A stretch of DNA of 40,823 bases. Origin: a virus. This document shows positions 18,966-40,823 of this stretch, one piece after another. How positions within the stretch are numbered: the first letter of the stretch is position 1; the number at the start of each line of letters is the position of its first letter. The stretch lies in IMG/VR virus record IMGVR_UViG_3300045988_137387. One strand, 5' to 3'. Below the pieces are notes generated by a model. It did no database searches and was not told the origin of the DNA. It saw only the letters and a list, made by a program, of their open reading frames with translations. The position numbers and the translations under genes were made by a program.

Positions 18966-19039
18966 TGGTGCCGCTTGCAGGAATCGAACCCGCGTCCGCT
19001 GATTACAAATCAGCAGCTCTGCCATTGAGCGAAAACGGC
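18966..19039 (-). tRNA. tRNA-Thr (anticodon UGU), phage-encoded
   Basis: The reverse complement folds canonically. Acceptor GCCGTTT/AAGCGGC; D arm GCTC-AATGGCA-GAGC; anticodon arm GCTGA-TTTGTAA-TCAGC; T arm GCGGG-TTCGATT-CCTGC; then A and CCA. 74 nt. Confidence 0.85.
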
Positions 19040-22591: not shown

Positions 22592-23863
22592 TCAGTCAAA
22601 GCTGTATGTCGGTCCGCACTGGATGTCCTCCATCGCGTATCGCATGGCGTCCATCAGGTGGTTGAAGTCGTCGATGGGTTTTCCGGTCTTGTTGCCGAAC
22701 TTATCCTTGGCCCATGTGTAGTTTGAAATTTCGGTCAGGAAATTCACGCAGCGGGGATGTACCACAATACGGAAGTTCTGGATGTACTGGATGCCGCTGC
22801 GGATGGAGTCTGGGCCTTTGCCCGCCGGGCGGATGCGGCGAAGACCCTCTTCCCGCAGCTCATCGAGGCTCTTCGGCTCGGCGCTGTCGCCCCGGATGCG
22901 CTCCTTGGCGTATCCCATGCCGTAAATGCGCTGGTAGATGGCCCGGTTGGTCAACCCGCGTTCATAAAGCTCATCGAACACCCAAATGGTCATCTCCTTT
23001 TCGCTCACCAGCCCGCAGAAGAATGCGGTCGGGTCGTTGGTGTAACCGAAATCAAGGCCGAATGCACTCTTGACGTCCGGCCTTGCCGCTATGATGGTCT
23101 TGTCGAAGGCTTCCTCCACCCAGTTTTCGAACACCAGACCGTCCACGATGCCCCATTCGCCCAGACCGGCGACGCTGTAGCGGCGGGGGTTCTGAACCTT
23201 CATCCGCTCAAACACCCGGCGGTCGGCATCGTCGAGCCATTCGTTGCAGGTGTAGTTCGTGGTCAGCGCCAGAGTATCGGGGTCGGGGGTGTCAAAAAAG
23301 CGGGCTTTGAGCCAGTGGTGCTCGTTCCACGGGTTGAAGGTCAGTGTGATCTGCTTGAACAGCCCCGTCTCGGGTGGGATAGCGCCACGAACAGACTCGT
23401 CTATCATGTTGAAATCGGCTTCGGAGCTGATTTCATATGCCTCCTCTATCCACGCCCAGCACAGATACCCGTGCTCGGCCGCGATGGACGTGACCTTGAG
23501 CGGGTCATCCAGACCACGGAACAGGATCTTCTGTCTAGTGGGCTTGTAGGTCAGTTCAAGGGGGCTTTCCTTCACGTCCCAGAACGCCTGCACACCGAGG
23601 CGGCTGATAGCCCATTTCAGGTCGGTGAAACAGGAGTCGTGCAGGGTGCGGTACACCTTGCGGATGACCAGCAGGTTCGCCTGCGGGTATCTCATCAGGT
23701 TGACGATGTACCACAGCGCGGTGGTCTTGGACTTCTTCGAGGCACGAGAGCCTTTGCAGACCCGATAGCGGCCTTTGAACCGCCAGAAGGTGCCGTAGCC
23801 CTGGCCGACGATGTCCGGCAGGTGGAGCTGGCTTGCGCGGGGGTCAGTCAACAAGCTGTTCAT
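22592..23863 (-). CDS. terL: Terminase large subunit (PBSX-type)
   Basis: 423 aa. It has a Walker A-like GSRASKKSKTT and a C-terminal nuclease-like region, and it follows terS. Confidence 0.85.
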   Translation of the reverse strand: MNSLLTDPRASQLHLPDIVGQGYGTFWRFKGRYRVCKGSRASKKSKTTALWYIVNLMRYPQANLLVIRKVYRTLHDSCFTDLKWAISRLGVQAFWDVKESPLELTYKPTRQKILFRGLDDPLKVTSIAAEHGYLCWAWIEEAYEISSEADFNMIDESVRGAIPPETGLFKQITLTFNPWNEHHWLKARFFDTPDPDTLALTTNYTCNEWLDDADRRVFERMKVQNPRRYSVAGLGEWGIVDGLVFENWVEEAFDKTIIAARPDVKSAFGLDFGYTNDPTAFFCGLVSEKEMTIWVFDELYERGLTNRAIYQRIYGMGYAKERIRGDSAEPKSLDELREEGLRRIRPAGKGPDSIRSGIQYIQNFRIVVHPRCVNFLTEISNYTWAKDKFGNKTGKPIDDFNHLMDAMRYAMEDIQCGPTYSFD

Positions 23864-24308
23864 CGCCGGAGATCACCACCGGAATCGGCCCGCCCAGTTC
23901 TACGTTGTCCTTGAACATCCCGTAGCGCTTGCCGATGAGCTCGGCAGCTTTCAGGCGATCTCTCGCGGAGACATCGATGTCCTCGATCTCCTGCATCCCG
24001 TCGCCGCACAGCACGAGGGTCTGTTCCTTGTGCTTGCCCCGCATGACCGAGGTGAGATATTCCAGAACCTCCTGTGCGTCGGCGGTCTTTTCGGAGTGGA
24101 GCTGGGCAAGGCGGTCGTCGATGTAGGCTCTCATCTCAGGATTGAATTTGCCTGAGGGTTTTTGAGGGTTTCCTTCATTGAGCCATTTGCAGGCATTTCG
24201 AGCGGTTTTAGGCGAATACCCTGCACGGAGAGCCGCTTTGGTAGCGTCGCTGTCCACAAGGTATTCGTCACAAAAGCGCTTCTGTCGGTCGTTCAAAGTA
24301 TCCACCAC
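23844..24308 (-). CDS. terS: Terminase small subunit
   Basis: 154 aa. RQKRFCDEYLVDSDATKAALRAGYSPKTARNACKWL is the small-terminase HTH signature. The start is GTG, either the first or the second GTG, behind GGAGAG. Confidence 0.85.
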   Translation of the reverse strand: MVDTLNDRQKRFCDEYLVDSDATKAALRAGYSPKTARNACKWLNEGNPQKPSGKFNPEMRAYIDDRLAQLHSEKTADAQEVLEYLTSVMRGKHKEQTLVLCGDGMQEIEDIDVSARDRLKAAELIGKRYGMFKDNVELGGPIPVVISGDEQLVD

Positions 24309-24324
24309 CTCTCCTGCACAAAAA

Positions 24325-24397
24325 TGGAGCAGCCGGGAGGGGGCGGCCCTCCGTCCGTCTGGTCACGCCAGCGCTCTCGCGGCTGAGCTACGGCTGC
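24325..24397 (-). ncRNA. Degenerate tRNA-like cloverleaf (not a decodable tRNA)
   Basis: Reverse complement: GCAGCCG TA GCTC AGCCGCGA GAGC G CTGG-CGTGA-CCAG ACGGAC GGAGG-GCCGCCC-CCTCC CGGCTGC T CCA. The 7-bp acceptor is perfect, the D arm is canonical (TAGCTCAG..GAGC), and the T stem is 5 bp. The anticodon-type loop has only 5 nt, and the T loop lacks TTC. Confidence 0.45.
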
Positions 24398-24399
24398 AT

Positions 24400-24428
24400 A
24401 AAAAATCCCCGCACATTTCTGTGCAGGG
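24400..24428 (-). terminator. Intrinsic terminator between the early and late operons
   Basis: Minus strand: CCCTGCACA-GAAA-TGTGCGGGG (9 bp including one G-U pair, GNRA loop), followed by ATTTTTTAT. Confidence 0.75.
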
Positions 24429-24630
24429 AAGAAAGTCCTTGAAGCAGCCTCAGAAAGCTCAAGAAGGAGAAAAATGCCTGTCAAGCAGCAAAAAGTCCAA
24501 AGGAGCAATTCATCATGATGGAGGAAAAGTTTCGGAGGCTGCGTGTATCGGTGGGCCTTTCCGGCTCTGCCGATGGTATCATTTTACACCGGAAGAGAGT
24601 GAACGCACAATGAACGGATACTGCACAGTT

Positions 24631-25035
24631 TCAGAGTTTCAGGTGTTCAATGGCCCGGCGGCGCAGGGCGAAAATGCCACGGGAAGTGAAATTCATGTCT
24701 GCGGCTACCTGCTCCCATTTCAGGCAGTCCAGATAGTATTTGCGAAGAGCGCAGTATTCGGCGGAGTCCAGCTGCACAAGCACGGCATCGATCTCCGCAA
24801 ACAGAGCATTACAGACGGCCAGCTGTGCGTAGGCACGGCGTTCGGCTTCTTCTTCACGCTCCACTGCCCGGGCGAGGCTCTGCCCATCCTTGCTGCCGCC
24901 CGGCGCAGCGCTGAGGTTCTGGGTGATGTGCCGGGTGGCTTCCTGCGCCTCTGCCAGCCGGTAGGAGAGCCGCTGGTAGAGCTTTTCGGCTTCCCGATAG
25001 CGGGAGAGCCAGCTTATCTTTTCCTCGTAGGTCAT
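24631..25035 (-). CDS. Late-gene transcriptional regulator, sigma-70 region-4-like (ArpU/RinA/DUF1492-like)
   Basis: Start moved to the ATG at 25035, which forms an ATGA overlap with the rusA stop. The C-terminus LDSAEYCALRKYYLDCLKWEQVAADMNFTSRGIFALRRRAIEHLKL resembles sigma region 4. It is the last early gene before terS. Confidence 0.6.
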   Translation of the reverse strand: MTYEEKISWLSRYREAEKLYQRLSYRLAEAQEATRHITQNLSAAPGGSKDGQSLARAVEREEEAERRAYAQLAVCNALFAEIDAVLVQLDSAEYCALRKYYLDCLKWEQVAADMNFTSRGIFALRRRAIEHLKL

Positions 25036-25445
25036 GCCAGCTCCTCCACCTGCACGAACACGCCGCAGATGTCGGCCCAGAACTTCTCGACGATCTCGCT
25101 GCACACCTGGGCGTCGTCGTGCCAGAAGTGCAGGCGGGTCATCTCGTCCTTGAGGGCTTTTTCCAGATTGTCAGTGTCGGGCTTGGAAGTGCGCCAGCTG
25201 CCGTCCGGACGGCCCTCGGCGGGGAACATCCACTTGACCAGCAGACGCACCGGACGGCCCGCCGGGATGGGCTTCTCAGGGGCGTGGGGCGCAAGGTAGG
25301 CGTGGAGCTTGGCACGGGCGGCTTTCAGTTCAGAGCTGTCATGCAGCACGGCGCAGGGCTTGCCGCCCTTCATGTAGGCATGAAGCTCTTTGGCGTTATG
25401 GGTAGTGGTGGGCGGACGCATAGGGATAAAAAACTGTGTGGTCAT
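25032..25445 (-). CDS. rusA: RusA-family Holliday junction resolvase
   Basis: KPDTDNLEKALKDEM...WHDDAQV carries the conserved acidic residues. 137 aa. Confidence 0.8.
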   Translation of the reverse strand: MTTQFFIPMRPPTTTHNAKELHAYMKGGKPCAVLHDSSELKAARAKLHAYLAPHAPEKPIPAGRPVRLLVKWMFPAEGRPDGSWRTSKPDTDNLEKALKDEMTRLHFWHDDAQVCSEIVEKFWADICGVFVQVEELA

Positions 25446-39215: not shown

Positions 39216-39226
39216 ATGAAAAAAAA

Positions 39227-39255
39227 CTCCCCCGGTGCTACCAACACCGAGGGAG
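39227..39255. terminator. Hairpin between the T5orf172 gene and the integrase (possible terminator)
   Basis: CTCCCCCGGTG, loop CTACCAA, CACCGAGGGAG (11 bp with one mismatch). An A8 run lies upstream, so the T-tract exists only on the minus strand. Confidence 0.35.
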
Positions 39256-39361
39256 TAAGATAAGCGGCTCGCCCTTGCGGGGTCATCGCACACCTAAGCA
39301 CTGCGATTATACCTCTTTTGGGCGGGCTTGTCAAAGTGTACCCATATGGAGGTGTATTTTT

Positions 39362-40724: not shown

Positions 40725-40823
40725 TTATTTGACAATGAAACAACACGACACAACACATTAAAAGTCCCTTTTATAGCTCGTAATGAGCAGGTCGTCCGTT
40801 CGAATCGGATCAGTAGCTCCAAA
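40725..40823 (+). repeat. Terminal direct repeat, copy 2 (identical to 1-99; includes the tRNA-Thr(CGU) 3' fragment at 40777-40821)
   Basis: 99/99 identity with positions 1-99. Confidence 0.95.

Follow-up and report, generated by a model that had tools for sequence, protein, structure and literature searches.

Transfer RNA (tRNA) genes are known at the start of the late operon in several phages. In Shiga toxin (Stx) phages, the ileZ-argN-argO cluster follows the late promoter. In the P22-like phages L and Sf6, the late operon opens with tRNA genes at its 5' end (PMC8022706). The locus described here belongs to IMG/VR virus record IMGVR_UViG_3300045988_137387, whose 40,823 nucleotides (nt), hereafter the window, supply all coordinates; the late leader and terS, the first late gene, lie on its minus strand. 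As in L and Sf6, the window possesses a co-oriented slot downstream of a putative late promoter and upstream of the first late protein gene, and sister phages carry intact tRNA-Arg, tRNA-Asn and tRNA-Met genes. In the window itself, this slot, which lies in the late leader between an intrinsic terminator (t1) and the terS ribosome-binding site (RBS), is occupied by a 73-nt cloverleaf that is very probably a remodelled descendant of a tRNA-Arg(UCU) gene. Unlike the tRNAs of L, Sf6 and the Stx phages, this copy lacks an anticodon and canonical D and T loops and supplies no decoding tRNA; the hosts belong to gut Clostridia and not to the enterobacteria, and the late genes begin with terS instead of the lysis genes. 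The presence of tRNA genes at the start of a late operon is known, and what is new is that one of them has here been remodelled into a non-decoding cloverleaf.

The identity of the cloverleaf is revealed by related phage loci and contigs, which are labelled with L-numbers. A search anchored on t1 and the first 15 nt of the cloverleaf returned 28 copies and one different sequence, L358, in which a canonical tRNA-Arg(UCU), called by ARAGORN at its default settings, comes after the same t1 (GGGGATTTTTTAT). The same tRNA-Arg(tct) lies directly after the same t1 in the IMG/VR contigs L367, L370 and L371, so that a bona fide tRNA is the positional orthologue of the cloverleaf in four loci. In an alignment of the window with tRNA-Arg(tct) (alignment A3), the acceptor, D and T stems are identical at 32/32 positions, and the variable regions, ACGGAC in the window and AGGGAC in the tRNA, match at five of six. 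The similarity thus reaches beyond the ends anchored by the pattern, as the T stem and variable region lie outside the search pattern that found L358. A 4-nt deletion in the window removes exactly T34-C35-T36-A37, which are the anticodon and A37. The D loop is 2 nt shorter than that of tRNA-Arg and is without G18-G19, the T loop reads GCCGCCC rather than TTCGATG, G26 stands for A26 and U73 for A73, the 3' end is TCCA rather than ACCG, and one anticodon-stem pair is changed on both sides from C-G to U-A. Given the anticodon deletion, the rewritten D and T loops and the U73-CCA end, the cloverleaf therefore cannot decode. A preliminary description of this DNA, made from the letters alone, had reached the same conclusion, and the canonical orthologue now shows that it is the anticodon that has been deleted.

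The 73-nt cloverleaf of that description is present in the window with all of its stems and its TCCA end, and begins with G1 at 24397, separated from t1 by the 2 nt AT. Its geometry is canonical, with a 7-base-pair (bp) acceptor stem, a 2-nt spacer, a 4-bp D stem and a 5-bp T stem that abuts the acceptor. The anticodon arm is not, as it possesses a 4-bp stem and the loop CGUGA in place of a 5-bp stem and a 7-nt loop with U33 and a usable anticodon; this arrangement, with its 5-nt loop and 6-nt variable region, had been proposed before and is the version backed by homology. The canonical elbow is also absent. The D loop, AGCCGCGA, has C at position 19 and is polymorphic at positions 16, 19 and 20, and in the T loop GCCGCCC only C56 and R57 fit the tRNA consensus, T54, Psi55 and A58 being unmatched.

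Standard tRNA detectors do not recognize the element. ARAGORN did not call it in the window at default or -ps90 settings, and the default run found only tRNA-Thr(UGU) at 18966-19039. The Rfam tRNA model RF00005 gave no match to the cloverleaf at the gathering threshold, nor at E <= 10, even when the search was limited to an 85-nt slice, and a profile hidden Markov model (HMM) built from 18 real tRNAs did not match it at E <= 100 but matched tRNA-Thr at 7e-11. Rfam searches of the window, of slices and of 16 related loci returned no family for the cloverleaf or for a structured motif of relatives described below, and weak small RNA matches in the Rfam E-value scan were merely the t1 terminator. 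Relaxed ARAGORN and Rfam runs had been suggested as a check in the preliminary description; Rfam was negative, and ARAGORN gave a call only at -ps80, as a tRNA-Val(GAC) with a 2-nt variable region and as one of 36 calls in the window at that threshold. Because ARAGORN, Rfam and the HMM weigh the T loop and D loop heavily, a purely geometric filter was written that demands pairing in all four stems, fixed spacers and 7-nt loops. Applied to both window strands, this filter returned exactly two matches, tRNA-Thr and the cloverleaf. Phage and bacterial DNA from elsewhere (3.47 Mb) gave 14 matches, 13 of which are real tRNAs, and dinucleotide shuffles of the window (3.67 Mb) gave three, none with NCCA; the shuffle rate corresponds to approximately 0.07 expected matches per window before sequence features are counted. 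A chance cloverleaf in GC-rich spacer DNA would account for the failure of every standard detector and for a fold z-score of only -1.6, but false matches to the filter occur about once per 1-3.5 Mb and a canonical tRNA with the same stems occupies the orthologous position, on which grounds a chance origin was ruled out as practically negligible in probability.

The relaxed tRNA-Val(GAC) call might instead be taken to mean that the element is an unusual tRNA that is still active, or that it serves as a decoy or sponge for host factors acting on tRNA acceptor ends or anticodon loops. The acceptor stem and U73-CCA are the same as those of a real phage tRNA-Gly(UCC) in L365, and the CCA is invariant, as would be fitting for such a role. 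The -ps80 setting, however, gives 35 other spurious calls in the window, and homology shows that 'GAC' is a by-product of the 4-nt deletion. The T loop without T54, Psi55 and A58 and the D loop without G19 also speak against activity, and an anticodon nuclease cannot be decoyed because the anticodon loop is gone. An active tRNA or decoy is accordingly very improbable.

Close copies of the cloverleaf are confined to one group of human-gut phage contigs. Terminator t1 was found in 74 IMG/VR contigs, in which the slot from t1 to the RBS exists in four states: the remodelled cloverleaf (29 contigs), an intact tRNA-Arg (4), an empty slot (approximately 17) and a second, plain hairpin (approximately 22). 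In empty slots the U-run of t1 passes straight into GCAAGAGAGGTGG, and both empty and hairpin slots keep 'GCA' or 'GCAGC' from the start of the tRNA, which look like deletion scars. In L284, from a sequencing-run assembly, the promoter, the hairpin at the 5' end of the leader and t1 are as in the window and the slot is without a cloverleaf. A single remodelled form is known, and it is also present in 44 gut metagenome contigs. A tRNA-Asn(GTT) lies in the same leader in L367, L370 and L371, and the more distant relatives L065, L235 and L242 carry a real tRNA-Met or tRNA-Arg(CCU) directly upstream of terS. Judged by these occupants, the slot is a landing pad for tRNA genes. A further observation concerns the leader of L282, where ARAGORN with introns allowed reports a 'tRNA-Stop(tta)' at L282:1066-1208 that ends in TCCA, has a canonical T arm and is extended by 64 nt inserted after the anticodon loop; this gene with a TTA anticodon could be a suppressor-like tRNA or a long-arm tRNA-like gene.

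At least three unrelated first late genes are found downstream of the remodelled cloverleaf, which stands behind regulators that are 32-100% identical. This bears on a role of the element as a DNA-level site, whether for pac or terminase recognition, for binding of the regulator or as a conserved linker for module exchange. Its position at a module boundary next to terS and the fact that the block of t1 and cloverleaf is common to otherwise unrelated flanks would suit such a site. A protein-specific site should, however, co-vary with its protein, which is at odds with the variety of terS or first-gene types and regulators, and the cloverleaf geometry, operon orientation and tRNA orthology explain the shape without any role of the DNA. 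A site of this kind is very unlikely.

The differences between the window copy and the intact tRNA-Arg affect 17/34 unpaired positions vs 4/42 paired positions (Fisher p = 1.9e-4), and within the acceptor, D and T stems alone they affect 0/32 (p = 1e-6). The loop changes are mostly from AT to GC, whereas polymorphisms within the population are all C-to-T, G-to-A or C-to-A, the opposite direction to the loop remodelling. Across approximately 80 copies there are nine recurrent polymorphic sites, seven of them unpaired and one retaining its pairing as G.U; element positions 26-50 of the metagenome copy set were fixed by the search pattern. The TCCA is invariant across copies, and the spacer immediately 3' of it is hypervariable. 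On balance, a selected structural RNA is somewhat more probable than not. Positions 16, 19, 20 and 55 (24382, 24379, 24378 and 24343), which lie in the D and T loops, differ even between phages whose terS genes agree at all 64 four-fold degenerate sites, and this variability suggests either hypermutable exposed bases or diversifying selection.

Several observations weigh against selection on the cloverleaf structure. A recurrent C59A polymorphism breaks a T-stem pair. The minimum free energy (MFE) fold has a D/anticodon region unlike that of the cloverleaf and is 1.4 kcal/mol lower in energy (-34.6 kcal/mol vs -33.2 kcal/mol for the cloverleaf), with the acceptor and T helices occurring in both folds. 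The cloverleaf is dispensable, as relatives that share the promoter and t1 with the window carry only a plain hairpin in the slot or nothing at all. Among phages of the same terS type, its diversity is no lower than that of four-fold sites (0.031 vs 0.049 and 0.020 vs 0.000). An apparent island of conservation at the element had been considered as a sign of strong purifying selection, a reading against which this comparison speaks; since the cloverleaf is not more conserved than four-fold sites within terS types, the island is attributed largely to module mosaicism and ascertainment. Finally, covariation is limited to one pair. Covariation of the stems in relatives had been proposed as a check in the preliminary description. 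Relatives of intermediate divergence, obtained from the protein database, are approximately 93% identical in DNA overall and therefore added little covariation.

The main alternative is a dead relic. The cloverleaf would then be an anticodon-less pseudogene that persists only through its 2-nt linkage to the conserved t1 and the RBS and is spread by recombination of leader cassettes. This would agree with the slot being empty or otherwise filled in many relatives, with scars (GCA, GCAGC) of repeated emptying, with conservation no greater than that of synonymous sites within terS types, with the recurrent variant that disrupts a T-stem pair, and with polymorphisms of the C-to-T, G-to-A and C-to-A types that mutational bias on exposed loop bases predicts. 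Neutral decay should, however, strike stems and loops equally, in contrast to changes at half of the unpaired positions and none in the acceptor, D and T stems. One anticodon-stem pair is altered on both sides, the AT to GC changes of the loops oppose the observed mutational bias, only one remodelled form exists and outnumbers the intact tRNA about sevenfold in IMG/VR contigs, and the 3' end went from CCG to an encoded, invariant CCA. A relic is a possibility that carries real weight, although we regard it as less probable than a selected RNA.

The leader in which the cloverleaf lies recalls that of phage lambda, in which a constitutive promoter, PR', is followed by a promoter-proximal -10-like pause element and the terminator tR', which is read through by the action of Q. 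In sequence pattern only, the window matches this arrangement with a promoter, a second -10-like hexamer at once, a short leader and a strong terminator before the late genes, and a regulator gene lies immediately upstream of the late leader in both. Unlike in lambda, the regulator of the window is RinA/sigma-region-4-like and not a Q homologue. It belongs to phrog_36, 'transcriptional regulator' (E = 1e-16), and shows weak similarity to sigma-70 region 4 (TIGR02937, E = 2e-4, below cutoff) and to RinA, in keeping with the ArpU/RinA-like regulator noted previously. No Q-family match was found for the window regulator, and among the scanned loci only L056 gave a weak match to phrog_79. A phrog_36 gene precedes terS in 3/3 relatives scanned, the upstream open reading frames (ORFs) of 27 further loci match the window regulator (phmmer), and gene callers give the regulator 134 aa in relatives.

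The closest relatives are homologous from GTG(n)TAAAAT-GA-TACCAT onwards, whereas the DNA immediately before it diverges with the regulator allele. Of 136 unique terS-upstream regions (L001-L290), 63 contain the motif TGnTAnnnT-N0-3-TAnnnT, vs 1/132 coding controls, and in most relatives a hairpin with a T-run lies directly 3' of the tandem -10 motif. From this pattern we infer that the tandem -10-like site is the late promoter. Either the regulator or RNA polymerase may recognize the conserved hairpin that lies at the 5' end of the leader.

Terminator t1 combines a GC-rich hairpin with a U-tract, as expected of an intrinsic terminator. Its stem comprises 10 pairs, including one G.U, in the terminator scan, which finds it; the hairpin energy is -18.2 kcal/mol, and one compensatory double change from A-U to G-C occurs in L282, L283 and L358. 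The strong minus-strand terminator that had been placed 2 nt before the cloverleaf is thus confirmed, but not its assignment as the end of the early operon. Because t1 lies approximately 200 nt past the regulator stop and downstream of the conserved putative late promoter, it is, from its position, the leader terminator of the late transcript and not simply the end of the early operon. A scan of the window found no promoter-like site between t1 and terS. With the putative promoter upstream of t1 and none between t1 and terS, late expression must pass t1, so that the late transcript most likely starts upstream of t1 and reads through it; the absence of a late promoter after the terminator and the resulting need for read-through had both been foreseen in the preliminary description.

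In the mechanism that is proposed, the conserved tandem -10-like promoter would start the late transcript, and most transcripts would stop at t1 unless the RinA/sigma-like regulator encoded upstream lets RNA polymerase pass. The cloverleaf would be made only on read-through transcripts and would take no part in the decision at t1. Proteins of the RinA family have been described as activators (PMC3152322, PMC3753634), and the literature on RinA/ArpU antitermination and the Stx-phage tRNA cluster yielded nothing directly usable. The layout of the leader is consistent with phrog_36/RinA-like late regulators that may act by terminator read-through.

In 14 distant relatives (L006, L018, L023, L027, L028, L032, L039, L040, L051, L056, L059, L202, L204 and L288) a different structured motif, termed R1, lies between the leader terminator and terS, for example at L023:2908-2976. 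Its long GC stem surrounds 'yCUCAUA', an inner hairpin and 'GAACUCCUA', and a U-run comes after it. A covariance model of the 14 members shows compensatory change in 14/17 pairs and scores true members at 28-92 bits, and R1 has no match in Rfam. R1 and the cloverleaf occupy the same slot and are both optional cassettes, but differ in fold and sequence. The possibility that the cloverleaf is a divergent R1 ('CUCAUA...GAACUCCUA') member was rejected, as the R1 model gives no match at 24325-24397 at E <= 10, and the loose pattern CTCATA-N-GAACTCCT was set aside after giving mostly chance matches in IMG/VR. Elsewhere in the window, at 39216-39258 on the minus strand, the R1 model gives a 22-bit match (E = 2e-4) to a hairpin with T8 (CTCCCTCGGTG...CACCGGGGGAG TTTTTTTT), which is most likely just another intrinsic terminator.

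The position of the cloverleaf between a terminator and the first late gene, the T5 run that follows it in the window and a weak 5-pair match at 24348-24331 in the terminator scan could point to an antitermination or attenuation element for t1, or to a second terminator formed by the acceptor stem and the T run. The cloverleaf, however, lies 3' of the U-tract of t1 and is untranscribed when the decision at t1 falls, and therefore cannot control termination there. The T run begins 4 nt past the acceptor stem and is missing in L282 and L283 (TCCAATTTCACAC), relatives with the same promoter and t1 are without a cloverleaf, and there is no match to the terminator-like R1 family of distant relatives. 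The observation that TCCA runs into TTTTT is accordingly correct for the window but does not extend to relatives, where the T run is not conserved, and the antitermination or attenuation role once suggested for the element falls with its order of transcription and with slots that are empty or otherwise filled in sister phages. Either role in termination is highly improbable.

Non-tRNA substrates of RNase P and tRNA-like signals for processing include the C4 RNA of P1/P7, the CI RNA of P4 and the MALAT1 mascRNA, and in tRNA maturation in B. subtilis an encoded CCA blocks RNase Z. The window cloverleaf possesses structural features of an RNase P substrate: 7 + 5 contiguous pairs in the acceptor and T helices, U73-CCA, and a single-stranded 5' leader that ends in UUUUUUAU. 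RNase P has many non-tRNA substrates and cuts mRNAs and phage regulatory RNAs (PMC4919922), and tRNA-like processing signals occur in longer transcripts (PMC4919922, section 5.4). Like these substrates, the window element would be a tRNA-shaped module with an acceptor/T helix and NCCA inside a longer transcript, as far as sequence can tell; unlike them, it has probably lost the tRNA elbow, that is, the interaction of T loop and D loop. Since the retained parts (a 12-bp coaxial acceptor/T helix, U at -1 and an encoded NCCA) are determinants of RNase P, cleavage would be expected at G24397, where it would separate the terminator-bearing leader from the terS message. Since an encoded CCA blocks RNase Z, the cloverleaf would remain on the late mRNA, where, being very stable and GC-rich, it would form a base-paired, protected 5' end.

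The reading of the cloverleaf as a module that serves RNase P-type processing of the late mRNA or protects its 5' end is tentative, and against it counts that the rewritten parts, the T loop and D loop, belong to the tRNA elbow that the specificity domain of RNase P contacts. Less probable again, though possible, is the full account in which selection, by removing the anticodon and elbow loops, enriching the loops in GC, keeping all helices and adding an encoded CCA, would have turned a leader tRNA-Arg into a non-decoding RNA that either lets RNase P free a late mRNA with a nuclease-resistant 5' cloverleaf or acts as a sponge for a host factor of the acceptor end. A different idea, that the 5' arm of t1 masks the RBS by pairing with the spacer and RBS, as in the MFE fold of the window, and that RNase P relieves this, was abandoned, as the effect was absent or small across 30 variants. 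Whatever its role, the cloverleaf is an accessory and not an essential part.

The features of the locus are listed in Table 1. The intergenic region from the regulator stop (24631) to the terS start (24308) spans 322 nt on the minus strand, and 16 nt separate the end of TCCA from terS. Spacer variants 3' of TCCA include ACTTTTTTGCA, TTTTTGTGCA, TTTTTACACACA and ATTTCACACA.

Table 1. Features of the late leader, the cloverleaf and the flanking genes in the window.
Feature	Coordinates	Strand	Details
Remodelled, non-decoding tRNA-Arg(UCU) derivative (very probable), 73 nt	24325..24397	-	Geometric scan and alignment to canonical tRNA-Arg(tct)
Acceptor stem GCAGCCG/CGGCTGC	24397-24391 with 24335-24329	-	7 perfect pairs; then U8 A9
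D arm GCTC-AGCCGCGA-GAGC	24388-24373	-	4-bp D stem
Truncated anticodon arm CTGG-CGTGA-CCAG	24371-24359	-	4-bp stem, 5-nt loop
Variable region ACGGAC	24358-24353	-	6 nt
T arm GGAGG-GCCGCCC-CCTCC	24352-24336	-	5-bp stem, 7-nt loop
U73-CCA	24328-24325	-	Encoded 3' end
Intrinsic terminator t1	24400..24429	-	TCCCTGCACA-GAAA-TGTGCGGGGA at 24429-24406, then T6 at 24405-24400
Variable pyrimidine-rich leader middle	24430..24546	-	Replaced by other inserts in relatives; nucleotide diversity 0.17
Conserved hairpin at leader 5' end, ATCGG-CAGA-GCC-GGAAA-GGC-CCA-CCGAT	24547..24574	-	In window, L282, L284 and L358; helices kept, internal loops vary
Putative late promoter, tandem -10-like hexamers	24573..24590	-	GTG-TAAAAT (24586-24581), GA-TACCAT (24578-24573)
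Late-regulator gene, 134 aa	24631..25035	-	ATG at 25035; mechanical ORF list extends to GTG at 25104
T5 run after TCCA	24320..24324	-	Within hypervariable spacer; not a conserved terminator tail
terS RBS, AGGAGAGGTGG / GTGCAGGAGAGGTG, with GGAGAGG	24309..24319	-	GAGAGGTGGTG kept upstream of at least three unrelated first late genes
terS, terminase small subunit, first late gene	23844..24308	-	Pfam Terminase_2, E = 6e-26; GTG start at 24308

The gene after terS is terL, which matches Terminase_3 and Terminase_3C, and the gene 3' of terL encodes an SPP1-type portal according to calls in relatives. In three terS relatives (P0001-P0003), gene callers add approximately 60 codons upstream, across the cloverleaf and t1, giving 212-213 aa rather than 154 aa; the long frame is opened by a 1-nt indel in the spacer, and these extended calls are probably an annotation artefact. 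A terS-based scan of GTDB species genomes found no relative above 63% identity. The tRNA-Thr(UGU) gene at 18966-19039 is genuine (ARAGORN; Rfam 64 bits) and lies on the minus strand downstream of the packaging genes, which have the same orientation.

Positions 1-99 of the window are identical to 40725-40823 and contain an apparent 3' half of a tRNA gene (...GGTCGTCCGTTCGAATCGGATCAGTAGCTCCA). Two origins would explain this 99-nt terminal repeat: a prophage that integrated in a tRNA gene and is flanked by att-type direct repeats, or a circular assembly whose ends overlap. Fragments of tRNA genes and non-canonical tRNA-like sequences have been linked to prophage integration (PMC9897764), and the tRNA 3' half in the terminal repeat is of this kind. 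The cloverleaf resembles these sequences in being tRNA-derived phage or prophage DNA that standard finders reject or misclassify; unlike the partial copies at att sites near integrases, it is full-length and lies in the late leader, far from the att repeat.

Phage tRNA genes tend to be considered solely as helpers in codon usage or as countermeasures to tRNA-cleaving defences. In this group of related gut phage contigs, an anticodon-less remodelled copy outnumbers the intact tRNA approximately 7:1 (29 to 4), and its pattern of changes is unlike neutral decay. If it serves as a signal for processing or stability, the cloverleaf would represent a route by which tRNA genes of late leaders become cis-acting RNA parts. 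The layout of promoter, terminator and terS is common to many Clostridia phages and suggests that RinA-type 'activators' may work through terminator read-through, with consequences for how the action of these late regulators is understood. The natural alleles of the slot, which are empty, intact tRNA, remodelled and plain hairpin, offer a clean experiment. Should the exaptation reading be true, the locus would be a clear case, in a bacterial virus, of a tRNA exapted into a module of mRNA processing or stability.

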